Assembly: GCA_050084515.1 (NCBI GenBank)
Contig: CM114271.1
Span: forward strand, 44,764,001-44,828,000
DNA length: 64,000 nucleotides
Source: Blasia pusilla
Lineage: Eukaryota
Reading direction: 5' to 3'
The position numbers and the translations under genes are program-made. This document shows, in pieces, positions 6,213-63,597 of the stretch. How positions within the stretch are numbered: the stretch's first letter is position 1; the number at the start of each line of letters is the position of its first letter. Under the pieces are notes generated by a model. It was not told the origin of the DNA, made no database searches, and saw only the letters and a program-made list of their open reading frames with translations.

Positions 6213-6693
6213 TGTCACATCTGAGTAGCCGATAGGCGGAGATCTATCGTGGATAGGGCGTAGGAGCCAGCGGACTATCTTGAGTGTAACTTTGTCCCAC
6301 GGTGTCGGATGAGGTTGGAGATAGGTCCATTGTGTCAGGAACGTCGTTTCTGAAAACTTTCATGTTTGAGGTCTTTCACAACCGGGTGACTTGTTGACCA
6401 GATCACCCGCCCCTGGTAACCTGAGCGCGTAGGTTACCAAGGGGATAGTTATTTTTAGGGGAAGAGCCTTTTGGCTCTTGCCAACCTATATAAGAGAGGA
6501 AGAGGGCTTTCCTAAGCCATCTTTCTCATGTTGGGCTATTGGAGCACCTCTCTTGTATGTGTGTGAGATAGGACTATGGTGCTAGCGTCCAGATTCCTTG
6601 ATAGCACAAGGTGGACGAGGCTCGATATGCCGATGTAGATTGAGGAGTGGAGTTTTAGGCCGGGTGTGCCATTTTTACTACTCTTTATTTTTA
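6213..6693 (+). repeat. Terminal repeat unit A1 (promoter/R/U5-like part of LTR)
   Basis: Direct repeat of 13502-13984; homologous to the start of copy C at 55988. Confidence 0.92.
6487..6531 (+). promoter_or_regulatory. TATA box (TATATAA 6487-6493) and predicted transcript 5' end (CATCTTTCTCATGT 6518-6531)
   Basis: TATA about 30 nt upstream of a motif complementary to the PBS; same layout in A2 and copy C. Confidence 0.65.
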
Positions 6694-6706: not shown

Positions 6707-7856
6707 TCAGGGGGCTGGTGGGAATTTGTTGTTTGCAGGGAGGCAAGCGAGTTGCCTTGGTCGAGAGCCCCTAGAGACGCGTGTGTTGCGGGTGTTGGTT
6801 ATTTTTCTATTCGGAAGGCTGTGGGCGGAAGCACTATCCGTTTTTCTCAGATTTTGCTGGTGTGGATTGAAGGGGGACAACAACCAAGTGTAGTGTGCGG
6901 TGGGGCGTCGGGTGTACGCGAGTGAGGATGTCGAGAGAGAGAAGAAAAGGGCACGTTTGGATCTTGCAGCTGTCGAGGGACTGTCAAGTAAAGGCGACTA
7001 GGTTAGGTCGCGAAGGCTAGGTTTAGGGTGCGGAGGACGGGCGCGGCCACATGCAAGGGGCGCGGACAAGTGGACAAGTGCAAACAGAGGACGGGCGCGG
7101 CGACGGGCGAGGGGCACGGACGGACGGACACCCCCTCCCCCCGCGCATTTACTACCTTTTTTCGAACGTGGTTGGATGGCAACGTGGTAGGGTTCAGGAT
7201 GTGGTGACCAGGTTATCAGGTTGGAGTTTCTTACGTAGTTAGGAGAGTTACATGGTTAGGGTCAAGATGGACCCTCTACACCGATGAGTTGAAAACGGAG
7301 AGTTAGTGTCCATGATGGCGACGGGTTTTCCGCATCTATTGGCGAGAGGATTGACATGTTGGTTGAGGAGAGTGTTGTGTTGCGGACGTTGTCGTGTCAC
7401 ATGGAGGAGTACGTGTTGACGATGCCGTAGGTTGGAGGGCGTGATCAGGTTACCCATTCGAGCCCCCTTTTCCCACACTTGTCGTGTGTGATAAAGAGTG
7501 CTGGGTATCGGGTAGTAGCTGGTGCTAGGTGGGTGCAGTGATGGTGACGAGAGTAGATTCTTTTCTTGTGTAGCATGTTGGTGGATATACGGCGGTTGCC
7601 GCGTAGGGGTCGCATGTATGACTTGAGAGTGTCGCTAGGTTAGGTGAGTCAGTTGGGAGGCTCATGGTGAGCCCGAGTGTTGAGTGTACGTGAGTTCGGG
7701 TATGTCATCACGGGATTAATGTTAGCATAGTTGAGCTAGTGAGGAGTGTGGGAGACTCTCGATGAGTCTGAGTGCTTGAGCGGGTGAGACAGGGTTGTCA
7801 TCACGGCGTTCTTCCAGGGTTCGGAAGAACAGGGTAGTGCGAGCAGTAGTAGTGAT

Positions 7857-8710
7857 GTGACACGGAGTGGAGTGAGATACCGAGGGGTTATCAGTGAGGA
7901 GCTACCTCGACATCCATCCGTGGCTGGATTGTCATCACTAGACACCGGTCTAGTGACAAGATCGCAGACGGAGGCAGTATCGCTTGGCAGGAGATGGACG
8001 ACATGGGCCATCGGGGCATGCGTCATTTCTCGGGTGCAGTGGGCACCATCAACTTAGATGATTTTATCAAGGAGTTTGACACGTGGTGCGACTCCCAGGA
8101 GATACGGAACCCGACACATTTCAACCCTTTCATGGCATAGAAGGGGTTGTTCCAGCACTTAGAGGGTCCTCCGATGGATGACTGCATGGAGTTCCGATCA
8201 CTATATTCAGTAGAGATCGATGCTTGGAGGATGTATTGGGCTCTAGGGTATGTGTCCACTAGTGGTCGGGAGACATATGATGGGATTGTGAGAGGAGAGA
8301 GACCCACACCATGAGCCCGGAGACTAGATGGAGAGGAGGGCAGTGAGATAGGCGATGTGGCAAAGACCTCTGGTGGTAGAGGACCACCCAGCTTCAGCCC
8401 CACAGTGGAGTTCTTCCGATAGTTGGGGAAGAGCTACCAGGGCGTACGCAGCGATAAGCTTAAGAGTCTTCAGGATTTTCAGCGATGATCGGGTGAGAGT
8501 CTGAGAGAGGCATTCATGCGCGTGAGGAGGCTGATCATTGCTACGTATGGAGTGATTGAGGCGCCGTCAGTCGAGTATTGGTACGGGGTTCTAGACCGAG
8601 AACTACGGAGGAGAGTCCGAGATGCGATGCCGATTCACACAGCGAAGCCCACATTGAAGGTGGTCTTTGAGTTGTCTGTGCGTATTGAGCTCAACATGAG
8701 TGAGGAGCAG
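7857..8710 (+). pseudogene. gag: Gag (capsid-like) of copy A, with stops and frameshifts
   Basis: DDFIKEFDTWCD...KGLFQHLEGPPMDD and GESLREAF...YGVLDRELRRRVRD, matching copies B and C. Confidence 0.8.
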
Positions 8711-8956
8711 GTAGCGGATAGTCCCACGGAGAGACACGCCATGGCGGGTGTCTCTTCCCATGTTGGCGAGACCTCTTCACCATGGTGGGGTACAACTCGA
8801 GAGCTACAGAGGAGTGCCGTCAACCTCGTGAGGCAGGCGTGGAGTCATGCCTTTATCCCGGAGCAACAAGAGTCAGGTGGCGATCGGGCTTCTGGAGTGG
8901 AGACGTTGACCCCACTGGATACCACACCCATTGTGTGGCAGTGTCTAGAGGAGGGT

Positions 8957-9880
8957 GTTAGGGTGTTAGATCTCTTCAGAGGGATTAGCACAGAAGTGGT
9001 TGCAGTATTGCAGGGAGGCACACGGGTGCATCAGTACCTTTATGTGGAGAGAGATGAGACCGCGCGGCGAGTATCAATACGTCACGTGGTGAGATTGGTC
9101 CATAGGTATCTTGAGTTGTTGCTGGTATCTGCAGTACGGGGATATCAGCATACACTACCCACCGATATCTCTTTGGTGGGGGCGCAAGATCTGGATAGAG
9201 TTGGCACCATTCATTTGGTGATTGTTGGATGGCCATGTCAAGGTCATTCGTCAAGTGGCCGAGGATTTGGATTGCAGGATCCGAGGTCAAGGATATTTTG
9301 GGAGATGTTGCGAGTAGTACGATACTTGCAGGAGAGTCAGACATGTTCTCCAACGTACATTTTGGAGAACGTGTCATTGTTGGGAGACACTCGTGCATGT
9401 GTGATGACGAGTGTGCATCAGGTAAGGTCCTGGTTGGGACTTGCTGTGTTGTTAGATGCAGCGAGAGTTGGGTGGCATGCCCATCGTCCATGACTCTGGT
9501 GGACGAATCTGATACCATCAGAGGTACTGAGTCGAGCATACGATGGAGTCCAGAGAGCACCACATCTCACAATGGATGTTATTTTGAGCTCAAGGCGTCG
9601 ATCTTAGGTGGTGACACGGGATGATAAACCACCGTTGGCCATGGCCAATAGGATGGGGGAGTTGAGGGCAGCCTTACCTACATTGGTGAGCTTCCCAGCA
9701 TCCCATGCCTTTCGTCCAGGAGGGCCAGGCATGATTTGGGATGAGGTGACCGAAGCATTGGAGGAGCCTACAGCAGATGAGCGCGAGCGTGCCATGGGGT
9801 TCGCTATCGGTACTACGGCGGTGCCAGGGATGACTGAGGCATCCCGGAGATAGGTGTTGGGGCAGGCGATGGACCTCAAC
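8957..9880 (+). pseudogene. C5 cytosine DNA methyltransferase domain (DNMT3-like) in polyprotein of copy A
   Basis: Motif I VLDLFRGIST, II YVE, IV VIVGWPCQG (Cys codon 9236-9238), VI ILENV, VIII AHRP*LWWTNL, IX ERERAMGF, X RR*VLGQAMD; one frame broken by 3 in-frame stops. Confidence 0.92.
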
Positions 9881-10206
9881 TATCTCACATGGATAGTTAG
9901 CCTAGCTATGGTTGAGCAGAAACGGATGCGAGTGTCATCCATGCCGTCACGTCCACGAGTTGGACCATTGCCTACAGGGTATGTACAGGCATTGGCTGGG
10001 GACGGGACAAGGAGAGATAGGCACCCATGGACTTCCTGGGACGTCGTTCGAGCGGAGAGTGCGAAGGCGGCCAGAGTAGCATATGTTCATTTTTTGGATG
10101 TGGAGCATGGTGTACAAGGTCAGAGTGGAGTGGCTGTTGCGGAGGTGGCTAGGATTGCTACATAGCAACCAAAGCCGGAGGTTGCGTCCCCCCGAGTGAG
10201 ATCACG

Positions 10207-13144
10207 ATGGAGACTTGGAAGCCTGTGATAGGTCTCAAGTTGATAGGAGGAGAGCAACGGCGAGTTCATAGGACTCTGAGAGGGCATGTCAGTTGTTTTG
10301 CCTTCAATATGAGAGACTTGGGTACGCTGAAGGGTCCCGGGATACAGATTGAGTTGGCTAGTGATACGCCGATCTTTCGTCGACCCTAGAGGTATTCCGA
10401 TATGGAGCGAGCCTTGATTCATAGCAGGAGTCAAGACTTGTTGGAGGCAAGAATTGTGGAGTTATCACATGGGGAGTATGCATCTGCCACAATCATACCG
10501 GCGAAGAAGGATATGTATGGCAATTGGACGGATAGGCGGATGTGTGGAGATTACCGTCCTATCAACCGACAGATTAGGTCAGATCGGTACGCCATGCCTA
10601 CTCTTGAGGAGATCTTTTGATGCGGTAGGGCATGCAAAGATCTTCAGTACTTTAGATTTTGGTGCTGGCTATCATCAGCTTCCTATCAGGTTGGAGGACA
10701 GGGAGAAGACAACATTATGGGGGATAGATCTGTTTGGGAGAGATTGCTTGTATCAGTGGCGGTTCTTACCATTTGGGTTGAAGAACGCGCCTGCAGAGTT
10801 TCAGAGAGTGATGGATAGGATTCTACCTGGCTTGGATTTTGTACAATGTTACATAGATGATATTCTTATCTTCAGTTCCACGATTGAGGAGCATGAGTGA
10901 CACCTGGAGGAGGTGTTTCGGCGATTGCAATTACATGGACTGAAGTTACATCCAGGCAAGTGCAGATTCTTTTAGGAGCAGATTGAGTACTTGGGACACA
11001 CCATATACCCAAGTGGGTTAGGCGTTCAGCAAATGAAGGTAGAGGCTCTTGCGCAAATTCCACGCCCTACAGATATGAGTCGAGTCCGAGCATTTCTTGG
11101 ACTGGTGAACTTCTATCGACAGCATGTCAAGGGTTTTAATGCGATCGCAAAGTCTTTGATCTTGTTGACGAGACTTGATCAGGTTTGGTTGTGGGGAGAT
11201 GATCAAGAGCGAGCATTTCAGGAGCTCAAGGACAGGTTGACGTCCTCATCCATTTTACAGAGACCGGTTAGGGGTCGCCCATTCCAATTACATACGGATT
11301 GGAGCATGTTGGGTCTAGGAGCAGTGCTTACTCAGAGGGATGATGAGGAGAGGGAGTTCGTGGTGGCTTACACGAGTCGATCGAACAACATTGTAGAGGC
11401 GAAGTACAACTCCTACCAGAGAGAGTGCTTGGCTGCAGTGTGGGCCGTGGCACATTTCAGGTGCTATTTATTCGACAAACCTTTCACACTTATCACTAAT
11501 CATCATCCGTTGAGGTGGTTGATGGAGTCCGACAAGCTTACGGGAAAGCTTGCTAGGTGGGCTCTATTATTGCATGAGTATGAGTTTGAGGTGGTTCGTA
11601 GGCCAGGTCGGCTGAACCAGGATGCGGACAAGTTGAGTCCTAACCCATGTCCGAGACAAAGAGACGACACACGAGCTCGATGGCACGGAGAGAGTGATGA
11701 GGAGATGGTGCTCGGGTGGCATGCATCTGCCTATCTTTGTTGGTTGACTATGGTTGGTCAGCCACAGGTGATGACTCTAGTGGTGGGGTTGGATGATGAG
11801 TCTTTGGATCCGGAGGTCAGTGAGGAGGCGACAGGTGGTCGTGATATCCATGACAACGTGGAGGTTGTGGAGTTCTTGCGCACTGGCGTCATAGCGAGCA
11901 CAGTGAGTGCTAGGGAGCGGGATCGGATCCTACAGCGAGCCAGGAGGTTCAGGTGGGAGGGGACTCACATTTTTCGGGTATGGGGAGATGGTAGGATACG
12001 AGTGGTATCTCATCCTTCCCAACGAGCACGTGTAGTGCGACATGCCCATGAGGAGTTGGGACATTTTGGAGTAAAGCGTACTTATAGCTTACTCGAGGTT
12101 CAGTATTGGTGGCGCGGTATGCATACTAGGGTACAACAGTTTGTGGCCAGATGTATGGTATGTGATAGAGTGCGAGCATCCTTCAATGCTCCCACTCCGT
12201 AGTTACATCCTTTTCCAATTATGGGTTTAGGTTATCGGTGGAGTTTAGACTTTGCGGGACCATTGCCATTGACTAGGCGTCATCATAGGTACGTGTTGGT
12301 CATGGTGGAGCATTTCTCCAAGTGGATAGATTTGGTGGTACTACCGGAAAAGGCGAGCAAGGGAATAGCTTATGTGTTTCTAGATCGTGCGCTTAGTCAC
12401 TTTGGTGCACCGGCGGAGGTGTTGACTGACCAGGGTAATGAGTTCAAGGGAGAGTTTCAGGCCTTGTGTGATCAGGCGCTAATAGATCACCGCACCACGT
12501 CCAGAGATCATCCTGAGGCGGATGGGTTGGCGGAGAGAGTGGTACAGACGGTGAAGAGAGGGTTACGCAAGTATGGCTTGTAGCGGGGACAGTTGAGGGA
12601 GTGGGACCTACAGTTGCCATGGTTGGCTATGGGTTATCGCCTTAGTCAGTAGGCATCCTTGGCGTCATTTTCACTGTACTTTTTGCTCTTTGGGAGAGAT
12701 CCAGATTTACCTGCAGCCATTCGACGTGACATGGCGGAGGTGTTAGATCTTGATGATCCAGATGTGTGGGTACAAGCATGTTCTCGAAGGGCGGAGGCTT
12801 TTCGTAGAGTTATGCCTATGGCCTTTGAGAACTTAGCTATTGCTCAGTATAGAGATACATTGAGGTACGCGACCATTCGTGGATGAGGTTATCGTCCAGG
12901 GATTAGGAGGTTTCATCCTGGAGATTATGTGTATTTGCAGCAAGCGGCACCCACGACACTAGATGTCACTACAAGACGCACGATCCTACGTGTGCGCGAG
13001 GTATTACCGACCGGAGTCCTCATGTTGGAGGGACGGGATGGTATGGTTTGGAAGGATCATATGCGCAATTGTGCGCCATGTCATCTTTCGAACGTAGATG
13101 GGACAGTGGATCCAAGCTTGGCAATGGTACCTGCATGCTTGAGA
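10207..13144 (+). pseudogene. pol: Reverse transcriptase, RNase H and DDE integrase of copy A
   Basis: RMCGDYRPIN, LPFGLKNAPAEFQ, YIDDILI; LHTDWS...ECLAAVWA; HEELGHFG..CMVC, WSLDFAGP, TDQGNEF, GLAERVVQ. Confidence 0.95.
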
Positions 13145-13279
13145 TGTATGTTGTGCGGATCTACGAGGGGTGCAACCACCATGTTGGTATGTGATGGTTG
13201 TTCTCGAGGGTGGCATATATCATGTCTGACCCCCCCTCTTGATGTAGTTCCCAGGGAACGATGGATGTGTCCGAGATGT
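13145..13279 (+). other. PHD finger (C4HC3) at integrase C-terminus, copy A
   Basis: CMLC...MLVCDGCSRGWHISCLTPPLDVVPRERWMCPRC. Confidence 0.92.
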
Positions 13280-13352
13280 GTATAAGATAGTAGGTCACGT
13301 CAGAGAGATGTGATATTTTCTATCTGGAGTTGGAGGGATCCAACTGCCAGCT

Positions 13353-13362
13353 AGGGGGGCGG
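13353..13362 (+). promoter_or_regulatory. Polypurine tract of copy A
   Basis: AGGGGGGCGG directly before unit B1; equivalents at 43006-43016 and 63694-63703. Confidence 0.85.
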
Positions 13363-13499
13363 TTGTGTGATCTCCATGTATATGTATGAGTTGATTTTTG
13401 TACATGTGTGGATCGACCAATGTGTGGGGAAGATTGGTGTTGTGTGGTGTAGATGTGACCAGCGATGTATGTTGTGTAGCGATATGTATGCGCACGACA
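13363..13499 (+). repeat. Terminal repeat unit B1 (137 bp, U3-like)
   Basis: TTGTGTGATC...GCACGACA, repeated at 13985-14121. Confidence 0.92.
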
Positions 13500-13501
13500 A
13501 C

Positions 13502-13984
13502 TGTCACATCTGAGTAGCCGATAGGCCGAGATCTATCGTGGATAGGGCGTAGGAGCCAGCGGAATATCTTGAGTGTAACTTTGTCCCACGGTGTCGGATG
13601 AGGTTGAGGAGAGGTCCACTGTGTCAGGAACGTAGTTTCTGACAACTTTCATGTTGAGGTCTGTCACAGCTGGGTGACTTGTTGACCAGTCATCGCCCCT
13701 GTAAGTAGCTTTGTCTTGCGCAGTTACTAAGGGGATAGCTATTTTTAGGGGAAGAGCCTTTTGGCTCTTCCCAACCCTATATAAGAGAGGGAGATGACTT
13801 TCCTAAGCCATCTTTCTCATGTTGGGCAAGTGGAGCACCTCTCTTGTATGTGTGTGAGATAGAACTAGGGTGCTAGCGTCCAGATTCCTTGATAGCACAT
13901 GGTGGACGAGGCTCAATATGCCGATGTAGATTGAGGAGTGGAGTTTTAGGCCAAGTGTGTCATTTTTACTACTCTTTATGTTTA
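13502..13984 (+). repeat. Terminal repeat unit A2
   Basis: Direct repeat of 6213-6693, separated from B1 by AC. Confidence 0.92.
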
Positions 13985-14121
13985 TTGTGTGATCTCCATA
14001 TATATGGATGAGTTGATTTTTATACATGTGTGGATCAACCCTTGTGTGGGGAAGATCGGTGTTGTGTGGTGTAGATGTGACCAGCGATGTATGTTGTGTA
14101 GCGATATGTATACGCACGACA
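13985..14121 (+). repeat. Terminal repeat unit B2 (137 bp)
   Basis: Direct repeat of B1; followed by TSD CCTT. Confidence 0.92.
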
Positions 14122-16859
14122 CCTTTGTGTGGATATGGCTGGTAATCACATGTGTTGGCCAAGTAAGGATGTTACAAAATACTACTAGAGTCGGTATCAT
14201 ACTTAGTCAATGCTCTATAACTCCACTAGTAAATTGTATTCGGAGTAAAATAACATATCCATATCCATAGTGCCATTCTAGAGATGACTACCTTTGAGTG
14301 AGAGGTTGTAACACTATGCTCACACTCACATAGAGTTGTGGCAAGCGAGAACATCCTGACATGCCCAACTCCCAATACGGAAAAATCTATGCCTGAAGAC
14401 AATGGAAATCCATTGTCTTCAACCAGAGGTACAAGTCTAGTATCATGTGCTCGACCATATCTTATTGAGATGAAATTAAGAGTGAGCAACCATATTTCTT
14501 GATAGCCCACAATAAAGTTGGTATGTTTTTTTGGTGGAACATGTTGATCTATAAGTCATTAAGATAGAGGTTGTTGCAATGTGCGATTCGAAGGAGATAC
14601 CACATGCATCAACCATAAGAACTACATAGCCACGTACACCTAGAGAGCATGTAGTGACACATTGAGTGCAAAGAGGCTATAGAGAACCAGTGTATCAAAG
14701 ACCCATACCAATTTTTTGCAAGGAAAAAAAATTAGAGTTCACATGTTGGTCATGGGCATAACTATATCATTAGCAAGACTGTATATGCCATGGTAGTGTA
14801 TGTGGATAAGGGGTGCATATGGAGTCCCAACCCATAGGCTAGAGGGACTTTAGAAAGGGGATTTTCATTGCGAACATCATCAATGTTGTGGTCATTATCG
14901 GGATAGGCGTTCTATCTTATATCCTAAATGATGCCTATAAAGAGTACTTGATTAAGCCAGAGCATCCAAAGGAGCCAAAGGTTGAGGCATAGGTGGCCCT
15001 AAAGGATGATGTGGTGGCATGTATGACCAAGGAGGAGGTAGATGCCCACCAACTAGATGAGTCGAGGGACACCTTGGGCATGAATCCGAGATGCCAGCTC
15101 AGATAACTAAAGGAGTGTATTGTAGTAATGGCACTCCAATTTCTTAACGCAAGATTTGTAGCATCTACTTCCTATGGTAGTGGCAAGGATCACGAGGATC
15201 CCAAATGGATGTGCGGGCTCGCCCATGTTAAGGAAACCAACATTGTGATAGAGGAGTAGCCAAAAAGTTGGACCCACAACAAGGTGATACTTGTAAGAAA
15301 ACTAGGTTTCCCCACTCATTTACCTTAGCCAAGGCTATGAGGATCCCAATGATGGTTTGTGATTACACCTCTCAAGGTTTAAGAAGAGTTGGCATAGATG
15401 CATGATAATATAGGGAGATTTGAGTAGATTGACATCCCATGGTGGAGCTTAGGAGGAGCCTATATGGGTGAAATGCAAGGGTGTCCACCGACTTGCTTCA
15501 ATCACCCTATCATCAATAACATATTCTAGCCCTTCATACAAGCTGATGAATTGGTCTATGTGTTCATTATGGGTTGCATCATACGATTAGTCATATGGTG
15601 CATATATTCTAGACACCAATAAAGCCTCCATGGCTTGATCTCTACTACATGCAAAGATGATAACTTATGATAGTTGTCCACCGATGGACCCTCCTAGTAT
15701 TGATATATCATTTCCGAGGAAATAAATGAGTTGTTTTATATGTGCCTTCTGGTGCATGCATATCAACACGCTCCATAATCTACAATGAATTTGTATAGCT
15801 CCAAGATATAAATTAAACTCGAGCATCTTTACAAGATCCACCTCCCACAATGATCTCTTATTTCCCACAAAGTGAAGTATGGTGCCACTAGTGGATCCCA
15901 ATGGCAAGCTTGGGAAATCAATCTCTTGTGTCCATACATTCATAACTCTCAATTCATATATATCCTTGCCTATCAATACAACTCCCAACTACCCAACACC
16001 TTGAGAAAATCCTCACATGTGTAGGAGGGGAGAAAAATTGGATAAATTGGGTATAGTAATAATGACAATGTTACTTTTGAAAAGTGGGAAATTTCATCCA
16101 TCATGTTAGAGCCAAGGTGACTTTCTTGGCACTAACACAACTTTGAGATTAATGATAATGTTATGCCGCTACGAGGAGCACATTATAACGATAGCAACAA
16201 TTATACGGCATGGCTAGAAGAGACACAACACGATAAAAAATAGCAACTATGGTATAGCAATAATAAATGCAATACATTGGGAAAATGAGGACATGCTATA
16301 ACTATGAGCAACATGGATATGACTACTTGTGTAACATCACACCCATGGGCATCCAATGCATCTATAACAATTCCCCCAATTCCCCGATGAGTGTCCTAAC
16401 GAGCCAAACTCATTTAAGGTTATGGGTGGAACAACATACTATGGTGTGCTTATTGAGTGAAGATCTTTCCATACCTATCGAGTTGATTCGCATCACAAAA
16501 TAGTAGCAAATCACATATCAATGAAGATCTAGAACAAGACATTGTAGAAACTCATCATCGATTTTTTATTTTTTATTTTTTTTTTTGGGGGGAGGGGTTG
16601 GTAATTACAATGTTGCACACTTAGGATTCCTACCTCCTTGAAAAATCATCCTCAAGCTACCAAAATCCGACATCCGCCCTTCTCAAGAACATTGAGCAAA
16701 TCCTTTCTACTCCCATGTGAATTACTCCTTATATTTATGTCTAAAAAATATATTCTCACATATTAATGGGCATCACAACATAAAATAATATTATAGTATA
16801 TATATGTTTGTAATGAAATGATAGGCATTATGGGAGGAAAACATTAAATAACCAAACGA

Positions 16860-33200: not shown

Positions 33201-33219
33201 ACGGTGAGAACAAACCTTT

Positions 33220-34190: not shown

Positions 34191-35694
34191 GAGTAGATCG
34201 ATGGTAGCTTCGATTGTGGATCAGTAGGATCTGGTTAGGGCTGATTGTGTACTCAGCTGTGGATGTTCGTGGCTTGTGGCCTATGTTGGAGGTGGAAATC
34301 TGGTGCATGATTGGTTGGGAAAGAAGCGCCTTGTTGAGAACTTTCCAACGCGCTTTAGATCGCCAAATTTTGTCAAGGGAGTTGGAGTTATCAAGGATTG
34401 AAGATTTTGTTTCGTGTTCGACGGTTTTTTGATATGGAGAGCTTGGAGTGCGGAAGCTCTATTGAAGTTCATCCAGATCGGGTGAGAGGTTCCTATTGCT
34501 ACATGTATTGTGATCTCATGTGAAGCTATCTGGTTGAGTGTGTGGAGCGTTGCGGAATCTGGGCGGAAGCGTTGTCCAATTTGCGATTCTGAAGGTGAAT
34601 GGATAGCAAGTTTGTCTGATTTTTAGCTTGGAGTATGGAGCTTGGTTGTAGCTGATTTTTTGTGGAGAGATAGCTATGGTGGCCAATTGAATTTTGGTTG
34701 AAACAGATTCAATTTTGGTTGATGTTTTGTGGAGTAATTGCTGATCAAAAGTTTGCGGACTAGCTCAAGGTTTGGCTATGGTGGACAGCAGATCGGAGGG
34801 GTTGGTTGGTTGGTTGGTGATTCGTCCATTGTTGGAGACGCCTATCCCATTGGGGGCGCCCTGGTTGGGCCTCTCTCCATAGCGAAGCATGGCGAAGCGT
34901 GGCGAACGGGGCATGTCTCGAGCATTTTGAGGCTTTGAGGCAACTGGTGGTAGCTCGGGGCGAGTGGGTGTGAGAGGCGGAGTAAGGAGCAAGGAGCAAG
35001 TAAGCAAGCTTGCTTGCTTGGGCGTGAGGCAATTTTGCTGGATTTGTAATTTGAGTGTTGCATAAATGATCACCCATCTTTGGGCTATTCTGCCTGGAAG
35101 ACGCTTAACTGCTAAGTTCTTAACTATGCTAGTGTACACACTGGTGTAGCTCATTTGGTGTTGTTTGGAGATGTGTTAAGCGCTTTATGCATCTCAGGTT
35201 TTTGGTTGATGGACCTCTAGCGCATAGTACGGTGTAGCCTCTTCATGCACGTGATATTTTCAGGTGCTGCGAGTCCGACCAACACGTCATCGACCCGCAT
35301 CGTAGTAGCTAGTGCGTTAGAATTGTGTGGTGGGTTTTGTGGATTTAGGGGGGCGCCACGTTTGGTGGATTGTGTTACCTTGATTTCCATTTGCGATTGG
35401 AGGGTTATCGTTGGACTTCCTATGTTTGGATCCCCTCCATCGTTGCTTCTTGCTTGCGCGCCCATTGTTAGAGTTGACGCTGATTTCCAGAGTAGTGTTA
35501 CTCCTGTGTGCTACCGGTAGTGAGGCTGGAGTGATGACCAGTAGACCGTGGGAGGCTTCTTGTGGTGATGATAGGTTAGGTTGCCTACACCCATAGCTAG
35601 TAGAGCTAGAATAGTACATCGACATCGGCGTCACTTGGTTACTTAGTGATGGTAATTTGGTGGTGGTGCGGCATCGACGTTAGTCATCACGGAG

Positions 35695-37110
35695 TTGTCT
35701 GGTGGTCTGGTTGTGGACCGTGTTGCGGAGAGTGGTGGTTTTACACGGAGTGGATTGAGGTATCGACTACCTTTTCCACTTCCCACGGTTGATGAAGAGG
35801 AGGACGAAGGTGTTCCAAACATCGAGTCTTCTACGTTGTTATCGAGTGTTGCAGCTCCATTGATTTGGGACATGGACGGGATATATGGGGCCATGAAGGG
35901 CCCACGACAATACTCAGGTGAAGTGGGCACCATTAAGTTGGAGGACTTCATTCAGGAGTTTGATACGTGGTGTGATATGCAGATGTTGCGAAACGCCACG
36001 TTGTTTACACCCTTCTTGGCTTGGAAGGGGTTGTTTCAGCACTTGGAGGGACCACCCATGGATGATTACCATGAGTTTAGGAAGGACCATGTTGCTTAGA
36101 TTGAAGCGTGGAGACAATATTGGTCTCCAATCTATGAATCTCTCACCCATGGTGGTATTGGTAGTAGTGCTCCTACTATGTCAGCCAGCCCGACGTTGAG
36201 TGGTACGAGTACGAGCCGGAGTGGGGGTAGCCATGGAGGTACCAGTGGAGGTACTAGTGGAGGTACTAGTGCCCCACCATACTTCAGCCCGGTTGTAGAG
36301 TTCTTCAAGATGTTGAAGAAGAACTATCAGGGAGTGAAGACAAAGAAGTTGAGGAGTCTCCAAGAATTTGAGCGAAAGACTGGTGAGAGTCTTCGTGAGG
36401 CATACACTCATATGTGACGCTTGATTTAAGTTATCTAGGGTGTGATTGAGGCTCAGGAAGTCCAATTTTGGTATGGGATCTTGGACAGAGAGTTGCGCCG
36501 CAGGGTACGTGATGCTACTCTTATGAGTGATGATTCACCCACATTGACCCATGTATTTGCTCTATCTGAGAAGATTGAGCTTAACATGATGGAGGAGAGA
36601 GTGGTGATATCCGCATTCAATAGGGATACAACAACTACTTCTCGTGTTCAGCAGTTCACCTCAAAGTCTCGTAGTAGTGGTGGTGGTAGTAGTAGTGGGA
36701 GTCGTGGGAGGTACACACGACCTCAGTCAGGTCCTAGAGGGATACTTGCGTAGAGACCATTGCCTTCATTTGCTGCCCCGCAGCAAGGACAGTCATGTTG
36801 GACATGTGGAGGTGATCATGTTAGAAGGGTTTGTCCCCAAGAGGATGGGAGACGGACTTTGGAGGATGGGCCTCAGTCGGCCCCAACTCAGTGTGATCAT
36901 TGCGGGAGACCAGGTCATCCTCGAGAGCGTTGCTTTGATCTTCATCCTGAGTTGAGATCAGGCTGCGGCCATGGTGGAGTAGCTCCGAGAGGCCGAGGTG
37001 GTAGAGGTGGTAGGGGTGGTAGAGGTGGACCAGTGGTTGGAGAGCCTACGTTGGCTACCCCTACCACTATGACAGAGTCAGCTATGGCTGCCAGGATTGA
37101 GCAGTTGGAG
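35695..37110 (+). pseudogene. gag: Gag with two zinc knuckles and RGG tract, copy B
   Basis: EDFIQEFDTWCD..., CWTCGGDHVRRVC, CDHCGRPGHPRERC, RGRGGRGGRGG; single frame with stops. Confidence 0.85.
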
Positions 37111-37806
37111 TAGAAGTTGGGTACTATGGCTGGTATTCAGCATAGAGCAGGTTCGAGAGCAAGGGATTCCACCTCTTATGGAGGGGATGATCTCTCTTAT
37201 ATGGCGAGTGCAAAGACCTGAGGTTGAGGCATCACAGCAGCGATTCTGAGAGGAGCCACTCGAGCGTCAGAGCCACGTGGTGCTACTGTAGAGTTGGACC
37301 CATAGAGGGGTGAGGCTGGGAGGCAAGCTAGGCTTCCCCAATCATTCTTATTGTCTGAGGTGCTTAGGACTCCATCCATGGTTCCTACGCATCCTATTGA
37401 GCCTACAGTGGGGACTGAGGCATCTACATCGCATGTAGTAGACACGGACGCAGCATCTAGTGCAGTATTGCGGATGGCAACTTCAGTGTTGGGATTCCCA
37501 TTGTTTTCGGTCACAGAGCTGATGGCTTTAGGAGTTGACTTAGCTCCTGTATTTCAGCTAGCAGCCACGTTGTGTGAACGTGGGGGTATTACTGCTACAC
37601 GTGCTGAGGTCGATGAACGTGTTACGGTGGAGCGACCCTCTATGTCAGGTATAGCATTGAGTACCAGTGCTACTTGGCAAGCAGCAGCAGCGAAGATGGA
37701 TGCATTACCAGCCCGACCAGCCATTGATCGTGAGAGGCTTACACTTGGTGTATGTATGTTGGACAACCGGAGTGGGATATTCCGATTGGTGAGTCCTACA
37801 GGATAG

Positions 37807-38106
37807 GTGTATAGACCAGATAGAGTCTTGTTAGAATCTGGTGCCCAAACTTTGATGTTGCGAAAGGCGGCATGTATTGGTTTGGGTATTCGGAGGTCAA
37901 AGCTTGAGCCTTGCCCATTCCAGATTCAAACATCATTTGGAGGAGCCAATGATAGGTCTCAATTCATGACACGGGAGAAGTTGTCTGTACAATTGAGACC
38001 AGATCATGCGACTGATAGCTCCCGGTTGGGAGTACCTACATTGGTCACATCAGTCGAGCAGTATTGTAACCGATGGGTTTTCAGATGGACTACTGGACTG
38101 AGATAG
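37807..38106 (+). pseudogene. Aspartic protease, copy B
   Basis: VLLESGAQTLML (copy C has FLLDSGAHPLML). Confidence 0.75.
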
Positions 38107-38537
38107 CGTCTTAAAGACCTGGTTGGCAGTCCGAGGATGGACATATGAGCCAGATTCTTGTGAGATTTATTTATGGGGCTCGACCTGGAGGCTCTTCCCC
38201 AACGGTGTTAGCATCTGTGGCTGGTTTTAGTGGAGTAGTCACTTGGCCATGAGACTTTTTGGAGGGTAATCTTTGTGCTATGGATTCTCCTTTGCATGAG
38301 GAGGTAGAGGAGGTCCCTAGTTTTTCAGAAGTGGCATCCTCATCGTTGGATGTGCCACTTTGGAGTTCAGGCGGTGCACTACCGCAAGAGGCTGATCGCC
38401 TAGTGCAGGAGGCTTGGTGTGAGGCTGTTATACCTCATGAGGAAGAGGAGGCCCCATGGCGGACTCCTACTTCTGGTCCAGTTGGGTTATGCCCTTTGGA
38501 TACTACACCCATTGTATGGCATTATCCGCCGGAGGGC

Positions 38538-39470
38538 ATTTGTGTGTTAGATCTCTTTGGTGGGATTAGCACTGGTTTGGCTGCAGTGTTGCAGACCGGT
38601 ATTCTTGGGCGGAGATACGTGTATGTGGAGGGAGATGAGATGGCCCAGAGAGTCTCATCCCGACATATCGGTCAGTTGATGCGGAGATATCCTGAGTTGT
38701 TGCCACCATCAGCTATTCGTGGGTACCAGCGTGCTTTGCCGTCACACATTGCATTGTTGGGGGCGTAGGACCTTGAGAGGGTTGGTCCTGTGGATTTGGT
38801 GATTGTTGGATGGCCATATCAGGGTCATACACGTGCTGGTCGTGGTGAGGGATTACACAACCCTAGGTCTCGATTATTTTGGGAGATGTTATGGGTGTTA
38901 CGACATCTTCACGTTCATCAAGCACGTGCTCCAGCTTACATTTTGGAGAATGTTCCATTGTTGGGTGACACTTGGACCCGGATGATGGCAAGTGTTCATG
39001 AGGTGCGGTCTTGGATTGGACCAGTGGTGTTGTTGGATGCAGCGCGAGTTGGCTCGCGTGCACATTGTTCACGCTTGTGGTGGACAAACTTGTTGCCTAG
39101 GGAGGTTCTACGTCGAGCATATGATGTAGTGCAGCGGGATCCTTGCCTTACAGTGGATAGTATTTTGGATACAGGGCGACTTTCTCAGGTGGTGAGGGTT
39201 ATTGATCAGTCACCCATGGCAGTGGTGAACCGTGTGGGCCAGCCTAGGATGGCACTACCCACATTTGTGAGTTTTCCCTCGTCACATGCCTACATGGAAG
39301 GTGGTCCTGGGCTTGTATGGGATTCTCATGTGCGACAGTTGGTGGAGCCTAACGCTGATGAGAGAGAGTGTGCGATGGGATTTGCTACCGGTGTGACAGC
39401 AATTGCTTCCATTTCTGAGGCTTCACGAAGTCATATGTTGGGTCAAGCCATGGACTTGAATTGTTTGACC
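38538..39470 (+). pseudogene. C5 cytosine DNA methyltransferase domain (DNMT3-like), copy B
   Basis: VLDLFGGISTG, YVE, DLVIVGWPYQG (catalytic Cys to Tyr, TAT 38817-38819), ILENV, AHCSRLWWTNL, ERECAMGF, LGQAMD. Confidence 0.92.
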
Positions 39471-39737
39471 TGGATTTTGAGTCTTGGGATGGCCAAGCAG
39501 CGTCGACTTTGGACTATGTCTATGGGTCTTCCACCCCTTGTGATGAGATTGATGGCTACCGGGATGGTAGAGACATCGGCTGGGGGCGAGGAGAATAGCA
39601 TTTTGCATCCTTGGAGTAAATGGGATGTAATGGTTGGGCATGTGGAGTTGGTTGCTCATGCCGGTGGAGGAGTTATTTGCTCAGATGATGGTATAGCTAA
39701 GGGTGTACCATCTTGTGAGGGGGTTGCCTAGCAGCCA

Positions 39738-42701
39738 ATGGCGTCCTCCTCTCCCTCTAGTGTGCCAGTGGAGGAGACTTGGGAGCCATTACTTGGGCCC
39801 AAACTTAGGGGAGGTGAGAAACGACGCTTGACACAATTCCTACGTGCTTATAGGAGTTGTTTTGCCTTTATCATGAAGGAGTTGGGTGCTTTGGTTGGAC
39901 CTGGTATACGGATTGATTTGGCTAGTGATTCGCCAATCTTCCGTCGTCCCTACCGATATAGTGATATGGAGAGGGACTTGATTCAGAGTAGGACGTTGGA
40001 CCTTTTGGAGGCTGGATTAGTGGAGTTGTTGCATGGAGAGTATGCATCAGCCATTGTCATGCCTGCTAAAAAGGATGTGCATGGCAACTACACGGATAGG
40101 CGGATGTGTGGAGATTATCGTCCTTTCAATCGGCAGACCAAGGCCGATAGGTATGCCATGCCTACACCTGAGGAGATCTTTGATGTGGTGGGACAGACAA
40201 AGATTTTTAGTACTTTGGATCTTCGGGCATGATACCATCAGTTGCCAATTTGAGAGAGTAACAAGGCCAAGACAACATTTTGGGGTGTCAACTCTCATGG
40301 CAAGGATTGTTTGTACCAATGGAAATTCTTACCCTTTGGGTTGAAGAATGCATTTTCCGAGTTTCAGAGAGTGATGGACAGGATCCTAGCAGGGTTGGAT
40401 TTTGTTTGGTGTTACATTGATGATATCTTGGTGTTCAGTAACACGGTGGAGGAGCATTAGATACATTTGCAGATTGTGTTTGAGCGGTTGAAAGCTCATG
40501 GTCGACGTTTGCATCCAAGAAAGTGTAAGTTCTTCCATGAGGATGTAGAGTACTTGGGTCATGTGATCTATGCAGGTGGTTTGGGAGTTCAGCAAGCAAA
40601 GGTGGAGGCTATTGCACTTATTCCTCGTCCGGTAGATGTGAGTAGAGTTTGGGCATTCATGGGATTAGCAAACTACTATCGGAGGTATGTAAAGGGATTT
40701 AGTGCTATGGCAAAGCCTTTAAACCAATTGCTGAAATCATATCAAGAGTGGCACTGGGGAGATGATCAGGAGAGAGCTTTTGTGGAGCTCAAGGCCCCGT
40801 TAGTGACGGCGCCTACCTTGAGGAGACCTATCGAGGGGCCCATTTTGGATTACACCGATTGGAGTAGGTTGGGACTTGGAGCGGTGTTGACACAACATGA
40901 TGATGAGCACATAGAGTTTGTGATGGCCTATGCAAGTTGTTCGAATAATGCAAATGGAGTCAGCGCTATAGTTCATATGAGGGATAGTGCTTGGCAAGAG
41001 TATGGGAATGTGGGCACACTTTAGGTGTTACTTGTTTGGCACACAGTTTACCCTTATTCGATCACCACCGCTCAAGTGGTTGATGGAGTCCGACAAGCTT
41101 ACAGGAAGCTTGCACGGTGGGCTCTTATCTTATAAGAGTATGACTTCCGGTGGTACATAGACCCAGAGTTGCCAACCTTTATCCGATGGGTTGAGTAGGA
41201 ACCCATGTACTAGCCAAGAGGATGCAATTGGGGCTAGATGGCATGGCGAGGTTGATGAGGAGATGGTGCCAGGTTGGCATGCATTCGACTTTTTATGTTG
41301 GTTAGGGGTGGACTCTAGTATGGAGGACCACATGACATCTTACTCTAGTCAGATGGCCAGCCTTCAGATCCTAAGGTTGGAGATGGTGGTACGGATCAGC
41401 GTGTTCATGATGATGCGTTGGTGTTGGAGTTCCTACGGACCAGTAGGGTGCCAGGCATAGTGAGTGCCAAGGAGCGAGACCGTGTTCTTCAACGTGCTAA
41501 GAGGTATAGATTGGAGGGAACACATATTCTCCGTGTGTGGGAGGATGGTAGAGTACGAGTAGTCCCGCATTTGGCTCAGAGAGAGCGCATTGTGCGACAT
41601 GCCCATGAGGAGTTGGGACATTTTGGGGTAAAGCGTACGTATAGCTTACTCCTTGGTCAGTATTGGTGGCGTGGCATGCATACTCAGGTGCAGCAATTGA
41701 TGTCACGTTGTATGGTTTGTGACCGGGTGAGGGCATCATTCAATGCCCCTACACCATAGTTACATCCCTTGCCTATTATGGGGTTGGGTTACCGTTGGAG
41801 TGTGAACTTTGCGGGACCGTTACCGTTGACTGTATGACATCATCGATATGTGTTGGTGATGGTGGAGCACTTCTCAAAGTGGATTGAGTTGGTGGCATTA
41901 CCTGACAAGGCAAGTGAGGGAACGGCGTATGTATTTCTTGATAGAGTGCTTAGTGATTTTGGTGCACTAGCTGAAGTGTTGACCGACCAAGGTAGAGACT
42001 TTCACGGTGAGTTTCAGGTCTTGTGTGACAAGGCGTTGATTGATCATTGGACCACGTCTCGAGATCATCTAGAGGCGGATGGTTTTGCTGAGCGTGTGAT
42101 TCAGACGGAGAAGAGGGCATTGCGCAAGTATGGCCTACAAAAGGGGCATCTTGGAGACTGGGAAATTCAGTTGCCATGGTTAGCCATGGGGTAAAGGTTC
42201 AGTTGCCAAGCATCCTTGGCTTCCTTCTCACCTTATTTTGTGTTATACGGCCGAGATCCAAACTTGCCAGCAGTAATTTGTTGGGAGTCTAGTGAGGTGG
42301 TGAACCTTGATGACCCAGAGATGTGGATGAGAGTGTATTCTCAGCGGGCCGAGCTCTTTCGTAGAGTTATGCCAACAGCCTTTGAGAATCTTGCCATTTC
42401 TCTACACAGGGATACGTTGCGGTATGCAACCATTCGAGGTGGAGGTTATTGACCATCGATTCGTAGGTTCCATGTGGGGGACTATGTCTATTTGCAGCAG
42501 ATTACACCGACAACGTTGGATGTGACGGCAGGCCGCACTATTTTACGAGTGCGTGAGGTGTTAGCTTCTGGAGTTCTCATGTTGGAGGGTCATGATGGAG
42601 TTGTTTGGAAGGACCATGTGCGTAATTGTGCGCCATGTCATCTTGCAAATATGGATAGTACTATTGACCCAAGCTTAGCCATGATACGTGCTAGCTTGAG
42701 G
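39738..42701 (+). pseudogene. pol: RT, RNase H and DDE integrase, copy B
   Basis: RMCGDYRPFN, YIDD, YTDWS, HEELGHFG..CMVC, TDQGRDF, GFAERVIQ. Confidence 0.95.
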
Positions 42702-42842
42702 TGCATATTGTGTGGGTATGCTGGTAACGCAGCCCGTATGTTGGTGTGTGATCGGTGTTCTAGGGGTTGGCACATGATGTGTTTGACTCCACGTATGGAT
42801 GTTGTTCCTATTGGAAGGTGGGTTTGTCCTCGATATACTTAG
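42702..42842 (+). other. PHD finger at integrase C-terminus, copy B
   Basis: CILC...MLVCDRCSRGWHMMCLTPRMDVVPIGRWVCPRY (last Cys to Tyr). Confidence 0.9.
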
Positions 42843-53906: not shown

Positions 53907-55987
53907 CAACCTGCTTCAACTTCCCAAGATACTCACTCGCTTACGCATCCTTCATGTATCTGTCACAAATCCTTCTTTTGAGGTCTGTTTCATTAGGGAA
54001 CATTGCTCTCAAGACTTGTGTCGTCGATGGCATATGCTCATCCTTATGACCTTACGCATCTAGAATGCGATTATCTTTCCCCAATTTGTGGATACCTCCA
54101 CATTCGTCAACGCCAAGGTATCATGCCATCGAAGTTGCTCTGGTGTTACGCGATCCTGGGTCTCAAAATACTTGAGCGATATGTTATCTGTGAATACTCG
54201 AGTCTTGTGAAGTCCCAAACACTGATGCCACTTCCTCAAACAATGAACCACCACAAAAAACTCTTTCTCATGAGTGGACCATCTCCTTCGGTATCGCCAC
54301 TTCCTCAAACAATGAACCACCACGAAAAACTCTTTCTCATGAGTGGACCATCTCCTTTGGTATCGCTAAGCTTCTTGTCTCGTACATAACATGTCTCCCT
54401 TTTTGTACCAACATTCCTGCAATCGCGAAATCACTAGCATCTCTAGTGTTTTCGAATAGATGAGTATGTCATCTATGTAAATGATCCCATATTCATTTGT
54501 CTCTTTATGAAAGATGGAGTTCATCAAAGTGGTGAACATTGGACATGGCATTACCACAAAATCGAACAAACTGTATCTCGTCCTACACGCAATCTTCTCT
54601 ACATCCGCTTCGGCAATCTGAATCTATTAATATCCTCATTTCAGGTCGATCCGAATGAAATACTTGGCACTTGACAATCGATCAAAGAGGTCATCCATCC
54701 TCAAAAGAGGATAGTTTTTCCTTACCGTCACTTTCTTCAGCGCTTAGTAATCGACACAGACTCTCAACTTTCCATCCTTCTTCTTCACAAAGAGAACGGG
54801 TGTTCCATAAGGTGACTTGCTAGTTTGGATGTAACCCCTCTGTAGGAGTTCACCCAACTTTTTCTTCAACTCAACAAGTTCTTCTTGATTCAACCTGTAT
54901 GATGCTTTTGAAGGTGGTTGAGATCCGGGTATCACCTCTATCTTATGATCAACCGCCCTATGTGATGGCAACTCACCCAGAAGCTTCTTAGTCAAAACAT
55001 CTCCAAATTCTTTCACAATTCTCTAGCTTGAGTGTTTCAGGGATTTCCCTTGAAGCTGAGTTCTAATCTCTACATCTGGCGCTTGCGTCATCCTCTACTT
55101 GTCTCATCAAGCAAAGGAATCCTTCCTCTAACTCTTTCAAACTCTTCCTCGTGATGGCGTTCACCAACTTTGTCTTTCTAGGAACCTCATGAACCAATCT
55201 GACGTGCATCCATTTGCCATTCACCAAGACGCTCAACCTCAAAGGTCTTTGCCTAAGTTCCACCTCATATGCATCTAAGAACCTGTTCCCCAAGAATCCA
55301 TCAATTTTGTCCATATTTCAAACTGTGAAATTCTCCTTCAACTCAAATACCCCGCATCCCACAACTAGTCCTAAAACGAACTCTAAGGTCTGGTGAGACT
55401 TGCCTCTTGCGAAACCCAACCTAATGGGTTCTTCCGCCTTAGTGGTCAACAACCCCAATGTCTTCACGATTCTGGGGCTCAAGAAGGAGTGCGTAGCATC
55501 TATATCAACGAGCAACATCACATCGCGATTAGCAATCTTGGATCCTAGGTAAACCAAATTGGGCATCCTCTTGGTGACTTGGAGAGATGTATCTAGGTCT
55601 CTCGCCAATAAAAACTTAGTAGAAAATGCAATCATACTCGGTTTACTAACCGTGGGCCTGACACATTCCTTAGCCATATGCCCAGGTTCGCCACAATTGT
55701 AACAAATCACTTTGGCTTTTGTTGACTTTGAGTACGGCGGCCCTCTTGGCTTTGTGTTGAATACCACTCATTTTGTTGTTGGCGCAAGAGACTCTCCATG
55801 CTTGCGCTCATCCCCATTCCAAACCCTCTAGGACGTCCCTTTATTTTTCGGTAACTTCGAAAAACTTTTATGCTCGAAGGGTTTCTGGCTTTGGACCTCA
55901 TCGTCCTGAATCCACTCCGTTAGCCTCAAAAGCTCCACGCACGTCTCTGGTAGGTGAGGCATAGATAAGAGGGCCTTTTTGGCGCTT
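53907..55987 (-). pseudogene. Chromovirus gag C-terminus, CCHC, protease, RT and partial RNase H
   Basis: CYNCGEPGHMAKEC, LLVDIDATHSFL, KKKDGKLRVCVDY, IYIDDILIYS, VVHCLRKW...VFTDN. Confidence 0.9.
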
Positions 55988-63231: not shown

Positions 63232-63519
63232 GCCATCTATTGGTGCAGTTTGCACGGAGTAGTGCTGGTCAACCACGTGGGAATACGGTGACCACGTTGG
63301 CAGCATTCACATGTGGTGTTTGCTGATCAAGAGGGTTCGGGGAGAGGATCACACATGCGGAGGACATTCCCGTAGCAGATAGTCCCACGGAGAGACATAC
63401 CACAGTGGGTGTCTCTTCCCATGGTGCAGAGTTGCTGTATTATCATTGGGTACGAGCTTTGAGATGCGTGGAGTGCATACGAGCTCGTGAGACACGTATG
63501 GAGCTGTGTTTATGTTTGG

Positions 63520-63597
63520 AGCAGGGTATAAGAGTGTTAGATCTCTTCAAAGGGATCAACACTACGGGTTGTTGTAGTGTGGCAGTGTTGCAGGGAT
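63520..63597 (+). pseudogene. Residual DNMT motif I in copy C
   Basis: EQGIRVLDLFKGINT...VAVLQG, then jumps to sequence matching the PHD end/3' UTR of copy A. Confidence 0.8.

Follow-up and report, generated by a model that had tools for sequence, protein, structure and literature searches.

A PHD finger at the end of the integrase in a degraded Gypsy retrotransposon of Blasia pusilla that carries a DNMT3-like methyltransferase, and in its green-lineage relatives

The DNA analysed here, called the window throughout, is a stretch of 64,000 nucleotides from Blasia pusilla (GenBank assembly GCA_050084515.1, contig CM114271.1, positions 44,764,001 to 44,828,000 of the forward strand), and all coordinates below count from its first letter. 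At 6213-14124 it holds element A, a degraded Ty3/Gypsy-type retrotransposon that carries a DNMT3-like methyltransferase and is now a pseudogene. The element is ordered as a gag-like region, protease, DNMT3-like methyltransferase, in-frame UAG, reverse transcriptase (RT), RNase H (RH), integrase (IN, with zinc finger, DDE core and beta-barrel) and PHD finger; the pol domains PF00078, PF17917/PF17919, PF17921 and PF00665 follow the Gypsy order, and the protease is seen in relatives. The last of these domains, at 13145-13279, is a true PHD zinc finger, with which the Ty3/Gypsy-type integrase ends at its C-terminus.

Several lines of evidence establish the finger. Its eight zinc ligands, spaced in the translation as C-x2-C-x11-C-x2-C-x4-H-x2-C-x14-C-x2-C, occupy exactly 13145-13279 of the forward strand, and the translation of 13085-13285 (+) terminates in CLRCMLCGSTRGATTMLVCDGCSRGWHISCLTPPLDVVPRERWMCPRCV, followed by a TAA stop at 13283-13285. 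The PF00628 search that a preliminary description of this DNA had proposed returned residues 87-131 of the 132-residue frame 12887-13282 (E = 3.4e-11, 43.4 bits) and, in a second copy of the element (copy B), residues 84-127 of frame 42453-42839 (E = 3.4e-9, 37.0 bits), both above the curated cut-off of 24 bits. A strict C4HC3 regular expression run through the six frames of the window finds a single site (overlapping starts 13136 and 13145), and finds nothing in 100 shuffles of the window that preserve local composition. The canonical C4HC3 PHD finger that the preliminary description had placed at the end of the copy A polyprotein is thereby confirmed. For copy B its claim holds as far as the domain goes, with a first Cys at 42702, but not for the ligand set: the frame ends in CPRYT and a stop codon, and since the eighth zinc ligand has mutated to Tyr, a change that had been overlooked, this finger is no longer a canonical C4HC3. 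The PHD is indeed the last domain of both polyproteins, as described; what had been missed is that both copies are pseudogenes, with a pol broken into many stop-to-stop pieces by stops and frameshifts.

The AlphaFold2 model of the 132-residue tail has a mean predicted local distance difference test score of 81, with 86-92 over the finger (residues 81-132) and mostly 84-93 over the barrel that precedes it, whose strands span residues 14-17, 32-39, 44-48, 54-58 and 62-65. As modelled, the finger adopts the interleaved two-zinc PHD fold. Foldseek superposes the finger alone at 0.6-1.2 Å over 47-50 columns on the PHDs of DPF3b, DPF2, MOZ, BAZ2A/B, UHRF1 and ATXR5, and several of the matched structures were solved with unmodified H3 tails. 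The best matches of the whole model are Tudor-PHD and TTD-PHD proteins (PHF1, MTF2, UHRF1) with a root-mean-square deviation of about 14 Å, so that these share composition, not arrangement, with the integrase tail. By sequence, the best 60 of 123 PDB matches comprise KDM5A/B PHD1, CHD4, KMT2C/D, PHF12, DPF2/3, PHF21A, UHRF1/2, ATXR5, KAT6A/B, BAZ2A/B, AIRE and similar domains, and include no ING, BPTF or TAF3 entry. The closest solved sequences and folds are those of PHDs that read H3 unmethylated at K4 (H3K4me0), such as PHF21A/BHC80, AIRE, KDM5A/B PHD1, BAZ2A, UHRF1 and ATXR5. In H3K4me3 readers the cage Trp stands two residues ahead of the His ligand; the residue at this position is a Gly in the window family (C-S-R-G-W-H).

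The finger also bears the marks of a maintained domain. In an alignment of 48 rows (34-80% identity to the window tail) the eight ligands are the only invariant columns among the 132 residues; the rows had been picked for intact fingers, so this invariance is not an unbiased measure, the unbiased figure being the 66 strict fingers among 72 tailed proteins in the census below. Conserved residues other than the ligands (G-W before the His ligand, L-x-P-P and P-x-G-x-W) are common to the group of H3-tail binders. The ratio of non-synonymous to synonymous substitution rates (dN/dS, Nei-Gojobori method, 45 PHD codons) is 0.04 between the related loci L058 and L063 (7 non-synonymous, 19 synonymous) and 0.09 between window copy A and a third locus, L002, and the adjoining integrase segment gives the same values. 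These are the usable cases among 13 pairs tried: dS over the PHD was saturated, and the ratio undefined, in 6, and pairs with very large dS gave unreliable values of 0.19-0.42. The codon comparisons indicate that the PHD is under purifying selection.

Relatives show how far the tail has spread. Searched against longer proteins, the last 132 residues gave 29 matches, of which 25 have PF00628 in their precomputed domain list and 19 keep the strict C4HC3, with 1-14 residues beyond the finger; named matches at 75-78% identity come from Marchantia polymorpha, Calypogeia fissa and Sphagnum fallax, by which the window would be judged bryophyte-like. The Marchantia proteins Mp_7g09570, MARPO_0060s0038, Mp_2g26090 and MARPO_0091s0058, annotated as 'hypothetical' or 'PHD-type domain', are actually pieces of the retrotransposon family. 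A metagenome scan returned 183 stretches with the same tail, from which 80 were retrieved and, after 9 partial matches had been dropped, 71 were examined. The copies are mostly degraded; a complete finger pattern survives in 49 of the 71, and some of the remaining 22 are cut at the end of the matched stretch. The DNMT lies upstream of the RT at 23 of the 28 metagenome loci with enough sequence to judge.

For a census of the clade, P0014 (RT to PHD) served as phmmer query in a search of 1.84 billion representative proteins, and the best 150 were classed by local BLAST with segments of P0026 as queries. The integrase tail is common to 72 of them (strict C4HC3 in 66) and a DNMT is present in 55, the two occurring together in 48; the 7 with a DNMT and no tail match include several that visibly stop in or before the integrase core, and the remaining 71, ordinary Gypsy representatives, have neither. 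This bears out the preliminary description where it put a PHD and a DNA-methylation enzyme in one element, as do the PF00628 and PF00145 matches in element A itself. Among the 72 tailed representatives the domain order is RT-RH-DNMT-IN-PHD in 39, RT-RH-IN-PHD in 19 (many of them probably ORF2-only gene models, that is, models of the second open reading frame, ORF), DNMT-RT-RH-IN-PHD in 5 and RT-RH-PHD-IN in 3, with 6 fragments. Named members of the first group come from Haematococcus lacustris and Chromochloris zofingiensis, and PHD-tailed pols were also found in Tetrabaena socialis and Chlamydomonas eustigma. Pfam searches of 23 relatives recovered PF00628 in 19.

Some individual relatives deserve mention. 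Members of the RT-RH-DNMT-IN-PHD group such as P0035, P0037 and P0041 have a long tail after the PHD that matches nothing in Pfam at E <= 1e-4. In P0342 and P0345, two Gypsy pols, a Dam-type adenine methyltransferase (PF05869) follows the protease and precedes RT, and the PHD separates RNase H from the integrase, so that the PHD pairs with a second kind of DNA methyltransferase too. One PHD-tailed Gypsy pol, P0318, is filed at NCBI under a 'Minisyncoccia bacterium' metagenome-assembled genome, probably through eukaryotic (algal) contamination of the bin.

A FastTree phylogeny of the integrase region, computed without the PHD columns, gathered the 78 PHD-tailed rows, without exception, on a single branch (support 100) apart from 8 ordinary Gypsy rows, the bryophyte-type sequences forming a group of 12 and most of the RH-DNMT-IN rows one of 58; this is a quick tree, in which deep nodes are poorly supported and for which the program issued a long-branch warning. 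Census, tree and loci together make the PHD tail a character of a green-lineage Gypsy clade that the DNMT accompanies. On these sequence comparisons, the tail defines a large Gypsy clade of chlorophytes and bryophytes, most members of which carry a DNMT.

Intact relatives reveal the coding layout that has been lost in the window. At the apparently intact locus L063, ORF1 (976-5085, 1369 aa) has a PF00145 match (E = 1.8e-13) and a weak aspartyl-protease match below the cut-off, and ORF2 (5086-8229, 1047 aa) holds RT, RNase H, integrase and PHD in one ORF; the two are in the same frame with one UAG between them. P0283 (2358 aa) and P0292 (2518 aa) are single ORFs of the order protease-DNMT-RT-RH-IN-PHD, the latter with an additional CCHC knuckle, and have 14 and 4 residues, respectively, from the PHD to the C-terminal end. 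In all three, integrase and finger share one reading frame. An in-frame UAG followed by CAR-YYN marks the DNMT/RT junction in the window (10163-10171 and 39729-39737), in L063 (5083-5091) and in L058 (4661-4669), and the UAG of copy A is now out of the RT frame through a frameshift. A homologous junction stop is present in 15 of 17 junctions inspected out of 26 (12 TAG and 3 TAA, mostly TAGCAACCC). The exact TAGCARYYA motif occurs in only 4 of the 26, and a CAA-CCC context in most of the 17. We take this context to be like the leaky-stop context of tobacco mosaic virus, a resemblance that suggests that pol is produced by stop read-through.

The features of element A and its two relatives in the window are collected in Table 1. 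The repeats of element A are not a plain pair of long terminal repeats (LTRs); they are split direct repeats with the layout A (481 bp)-coding-B (140 bp)-A-B. CCTT stands at both 6209-6212 and 14123-14126 and is a possible, though weak, candidate for a 4-bp flanking duplication. Copy B and the short contigs L058 and L063 yielded no terminal repeats. The gag-like frame 7898-8140 of element A matched no Pfam family. The methyltransferase is recognized by PF00145 in frame 8489-9493 (E = 9.6e-8), and when the copy B homologue is compared with solved structures all 18 PDB matches are DNMT3A or DNMT3B, at a weak E of about 7e-4. Copy B consists of a gag-like part, a CCHC-like motif seen by eye, the DNMT at 38538-39500, the UAG at 39729-39731, RT, RNase H and the integrase core. 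Copy C retains repeats and a gag-like region: blastn of element A against the window gave no match there to 8765-13261 of A (DNMT to PHD), and 59140 and 63372 are separated by about 4.2 kb of unrelated sequence.

Table 1. Coordinates of element A, its parts and its relatives in the 64,000-nucleotide window
Feature	Position	Strand	Evidence or remark
5' terminal repeat 'A1' of element A	6213..6693	+	91% identity over 487 columns to 13502-13984
gag-like region, element A	7357..8712	+	~80% identity to copy C 57732-59140; partial match to copy B 35905-36515
DNMT3-like C5-cytosine methyltransferase, degraded	8963..9919	+	tblastn with the DNMT part of P0026, 34% identity
UAG-CAA-CCA at the DNMT/RT junction, probably ORF1/ORF2 boundary and leaky-stop context	10163..10171	+	
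Reverse transcriptase	10447..11140	+	PF00078, E = 1.4e-16; tblastn
RNase H	11276..11662	+	PF17917, E = 3.9e-32 (also PF17919); tblastn
Integrase N-terminal H2C2 zinc-binding domain	12014..12178	+	PF17921, E = 1.6e-16, residues 347-401 of frame 10976-12202
Integrase catalytic core (rve)	12233..12727	+	PF00665, E = 4.9e-14; tblastn 12314-12727
Integrase C-terminal region, five-stranded beta-barrel	12887..13144	+	AlphaFold2 model, residues 14-65
PHD finger (C4HC3)	13145..13279	+	ligand pattern, PF00628, model, Foldseek superposition
Short repeat 'B1'	13363..13502	+	94% identity to 13985-14124; 140 bp
3' copy 'A2' of the long repeat	13502..13984	+	91% identity to 6213-6693
Short repeat 'B2', end of element A	13985..14124	+	94% identity to B1
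Copy B, second, diverged element	35656..42842	+	~72% identity to A over pol; domain order as in A
PHD finger of copy B, eighth ligand Tyr, stop codon included	42702..42842	+	PF00628, E = 3.4e-9
Copy C, relative of A	55985..63846	+	blastn of A: 55985-56631, 57732-59140, 63372-63426, 63604-63846

The surroundings add a few observations. All three copies have a strongly positive GC skew (0.19 to 0.30) along their coding strand (8001-12000, 36001-44000 and 56001-60000); elsewhere in the window the skew is mostly negative or lower, though it reaches 0.14-0.18 in 12001-16000, where element A ends, and in 32001-36000 and 60001-64000. Between A and B, at 31749-32966, a 405-aa open frame has a weak match to the aspartyl-protease family PF13650 (E = 0.009, below the cut-off); it may be another retroelement remnant, in keeping with transposon-rich surroundings. 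The observed/expected ratio of CpG is 0.55-0.75 in elements and flanks alike and only 5 of the 34 differences between the long repeats fall at CpG, so that a signature of methylation decay is not clear.

How does element A compare with known elements? Its two ingredients have already been published, Gypsy-DNMT3 elements on the one hand and PHD fingers in Gypsy elements of the green lineage on the other. KnitGypsy-Dnmt3 is a Gypsy element with a Dnmt3 domain that de Mendoza et al. (2018, PMC5890265) report from Klebsormidium nitens as an acquisition of that lineage, and the wording of a 2026 preprint is 'streptophytes (Gypsy-DNMT3)' (10.64898/2026.05.21.726589). Element A shares with KnitGypsy-Dnmt3 the Gypsy domain set, the Dnmt3-related methyltransferase within the polyprotein, a streptophyte host and DIRS-like A-coding-B-A-B repeats (Fig. 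4c legend, PMC5890265). The two differ in that the published element is given for K. nitens only, whereas the relatives found here live in liverworts, Sphagnum and several chlorophytes. The term 'PHD' is absent from the text and one supplement of PMC5890265, whose figures and other supplements may show the domain, and that same supplement holds none of 'PF00628', 'Marchantia' and 'Gypsy' either. Among the best 120 of 451 homologues listed, none is a K. nitens protein. With a Dnmt3-related methyltransferase in a Gypsy polyprotein and A-coding-B-A-B repeats, element A is, as judged from its sequence, of the Gypsy-DNMT3 type.

As for the finger, REM1 (reportedly described by Perez-Alegre et al. 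in 2005) is said to be a PHD-bearing Gypsy element of Chlamydomonas. The Chlamydomonas element Gypsy-7a_cRei has a PHD between RNase H and integrase, with no DNMT listed (PMC9940879, Fig. 6 legend), and the PHD has been called a 'common accessory domain' of C. reinhardtii transposons (PMC8557442). Gypsy-7a_cRei resembles element A in being a green-lineage Gypsy with a PHD in pol; unlike it, element A has the PHD last, after the integrase, together with a DNMT, and the RH-PHD-IN order recurs here in 3 of the 72 tailed representatives and in P0342/P0345. More broadly, PHD fingers are widespread in retrotransposons (PMC6673714, discussion), and across eukaryotes the readers that most frequently join the RT or integrase of retrotransposons are PHD and chromodomains, with PYGO-like PHDs in cnidarian elements (Grau-Bove et al., 10.1101/2021.11.30.470311); the available passages of that survey do not describe the green-lineage clade or the coupling to a DNMT. 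EpiLTRs combine a chromodomain, Dam and DNMT in one LTR element (10.64898/2026.05.21.726589) and are like element A in bringing together a chromatin-reader-type domain and a DNA methyltransferase in one retrotransposon. Their reader is a chromodomain, accompanied by Dam and by a DNMT sister to DNMT4 at the 3' end of pol, whereas the family described here has a PHD as reader and a DNMT3-like enzyme upstream of the RT. A full-text search of a limited collection of papers, with the figures and most supplements of PMC5890265 outside its reach, found no text on Gypsy elements that carry a DNMT and have a PHD closing the integrase, nor on such a pair spanning chlorophytes and bryophytes. The evidence points to element A as a bryophyte-type addition to a published kind of element, and to a PHD-DNMT pairing far wider than has been described.

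In chromoviruses such as MAGGY, a chromodomain sits at the integrase C-terminus (10.1101/2021.11.30.470311; PMC6673714). Element A is comparable in having a histone-reader-type domain in frame after the integrase barrel, for which we propose the same tethering job; it differs in that its reader is a PHD, the expected ligand of which would be the H3 N-terminus around K4, not H3K9me. The C-terminal frames of copies A and B gave no match to the chromodomain PF00385 at E <= 0.01 and, without a chromodomain, element A falls outside the definition of a chromovirus. The preliminary description had the finger replacing the chromodomain. This holds for the position, after the C-terminal beta-barrel of the integrase as in chromoviruses, but a replacement as an evolutionary event is rejected: PF00385 was found in none of the 23 relatives scanned (E <= 1e-4) and on no non-PHD match listed among the best 120 of 451 homologues, and one relative has both domains. 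In this protein, P0271 (2306 aa, RT-RH-DNMT-IN-PHD-Chromo), the PHD covers residues 1923-1967 and the chromodomain residues 1993-2043, starting 26 residues later. The chromodomain-less relatives and this tandem thus give no sign of a swap, and PHD and chromodomain are not mutually exclusive.

What might the finger do? The preliminary description had the PHD guide integration to particular chromatin, an idea that draws on the position of the finger, its conservation and its likeness to H3-tail readers; on the same grounds, reading of histone H3 by the integrase is the most likely role. We propose that the PHD is a chromatin tether by which integration docks onto H3, a clade-wide trait carried on the integrase, and that the DNMT acts separately; we put the probability of this reading at roughly 60%. 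In active members the PHD would remain attached to the integrase and dock the pre-integration complex onto histone H3 at its N-terminal tail; the tail in its unmodified or low-methyl K4 state would be the likely target. Because of this proposed preference, insertion would be steered off active promoters and new copies would land in nucleosomal chromatin other than these. The PHD would do the job done in chromoviruses by the chromodomain, a domain known to direct Gypsy integration (PMC6673714; 10.64898/2026.05.21.726589), and the DNMT would be made from the upstream ORF and act as a separate protein.

A number of points weigh against the tether. Copies A and B are both dead, so that the locus itself has no function now. 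Histone binding, its specificity and any effect on target choice are all deduced from likeness to known readers. The best-studied H3K4me0 readers contact K4 through acidic residues, and in this respect the window-family finger seems unlike them: such residues are not obvious in the liverwort-type sequences, where the loop after the second Cys reads G-S-x-x-G-A, and Asp or Glu appears there only among the more remote relatives. The geometry varies as well. Beyond the PHD, chlorophyte relatives run on for 253 more residues at the median, counted over the 66 representatives whose finger is whole, and a few elements (3 of the 72, plus P0342 and P0345) have the finger between RNase H and integrase, so that a fixed C-terminal tether is not universal. 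Finally, retention in transposon-rich DNA, rather than targeting, could account for the three related copies found within 64 kb.

The lack of evident K4-contacting acidic residues and the shifting position of the finger within pol would also suit a zinc module with a non-histone role, for instance in multimerisation of the integrase, in stability or nuclear import, or in contacts with nucleic acid or a host protein. PHD-like fingers do bind non-histone partners in some proteins, and the Foldseek list includes the UHRF1 PHD with PAF15 and Stella peptides. Against such a role, the closest neighbours in sequence and structure are almost all H3-tail binders, and the conserved G-W, L-x-P-P and P-x-G-x-W residues are those of that same group; we regard it as unlikely.

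The recurrent pairing of the two domains raises another alternative, in which the PHD and the DNMT3-like enzyme of the element form a coupled reader and writer: on the nucleosomes of the new copy, or of its target, the finger would recognise H3K4 that is unmethylated and so permit the methylation of cytosines at that place. The model for this is DNMT3, in which the ADD domain is the H3-reading partner of the methyltransferase, and the element likewise appears, by its sequence, to pair a finger of the unmodified-H3-reader type with an enzyme whose only solved relatives are DNMT3A/B. Co-occurrence in 48 of the 72 tailed representatives, with truncation evident in several of the 7 DNMT-bearing proteins that have no PHD match, speaks for a link, as does the upstream DNMT at most metagenome loci; in chlorophyte relatives, where the DNMT directly adjoins the integrase-PHD unit (the 39 proteins of RT-RH-DNMT-IN-PHD order), a DNMT-IN-PHD polypeptide is conceivable. 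In the window family, however, the two are on separate polypeptides, unlike in DNMT3. ORF1 encodes the DNMT, and the PHD closes ORF2 some 1000 residues further on; a conserved in-frame UAG lies between them and a protease is present, which makes a single reader-writer unit less likely. Moreover, PHD fingers also accompany a Dam adenine methylase with the DNMT absent (P0342, P0345), 24 of the 72 tailed representatives show no DNMT (although many are probably ORF2-only gene models), and the co-occurrence represents a single clade, not repeated independent pairings. The suggestion in the preliminary description that the PHD may work with the DNMT thus gains from a pairing that recurs clade-wide and loses where it implies one protein, and we consider the coupling distinctly improbable.

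That the finger is foreign to the element, a chance Cys/His pattern or a host-gene fragment beside the insertion, would draw on nothing more than the degradation of both window copies and is refuted, to the point of being scarcely credible, by the uniqueness of the C4HC3 in the window (0 of 100 shuffles), by the same tail in frame with integrase in the 183 metagenome stretches, in intact ORFs and in named bryophyte and chlorophyte proteins, and by the dN/dS of 0.04-0.09.

Beyond the H3-docking tether, a bolder picture can be drawn, one that we hold to be doubtful. A Viridiplantae-wide Gypsy clade would have carried, since before the chlorophyte/streptophyte split, both an integrase PHD that reads unmethylated H3K4 and a DNMT3-like enzyme, realizing the ADD-plus-methyltransferase logic in two proteins. 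Such elements would pick silent, promoter-free nucleosomes and then methylate their own new copy, with pol and its PHD dosed by read-through at UAG-CAR-YYN.

Gypsy-DNMT3 elements are much wider in the green lineage than the single charophyte of the original description, and retrotransposon pieces such as Mp_7g09570 can make the number of 'PHD' and 'DNMT3' genes come out too high in annotations of algae and bryophytes. Should the finger be a tether, LTR retrotransposons would have a second, independent route for reading chromatin, through the H3 N-terminus by a PHD as against H3K9me by a chromodomain, and this route would come paired with a DNA methyltransferase. How such elements choose safe landing sites, and whether a transposon-encoded DNMT marks its own copies, would then become questions that could be approached in hosts that lend themselves to experiment, among them Marchantia, Sphagnum and Haematococcus.

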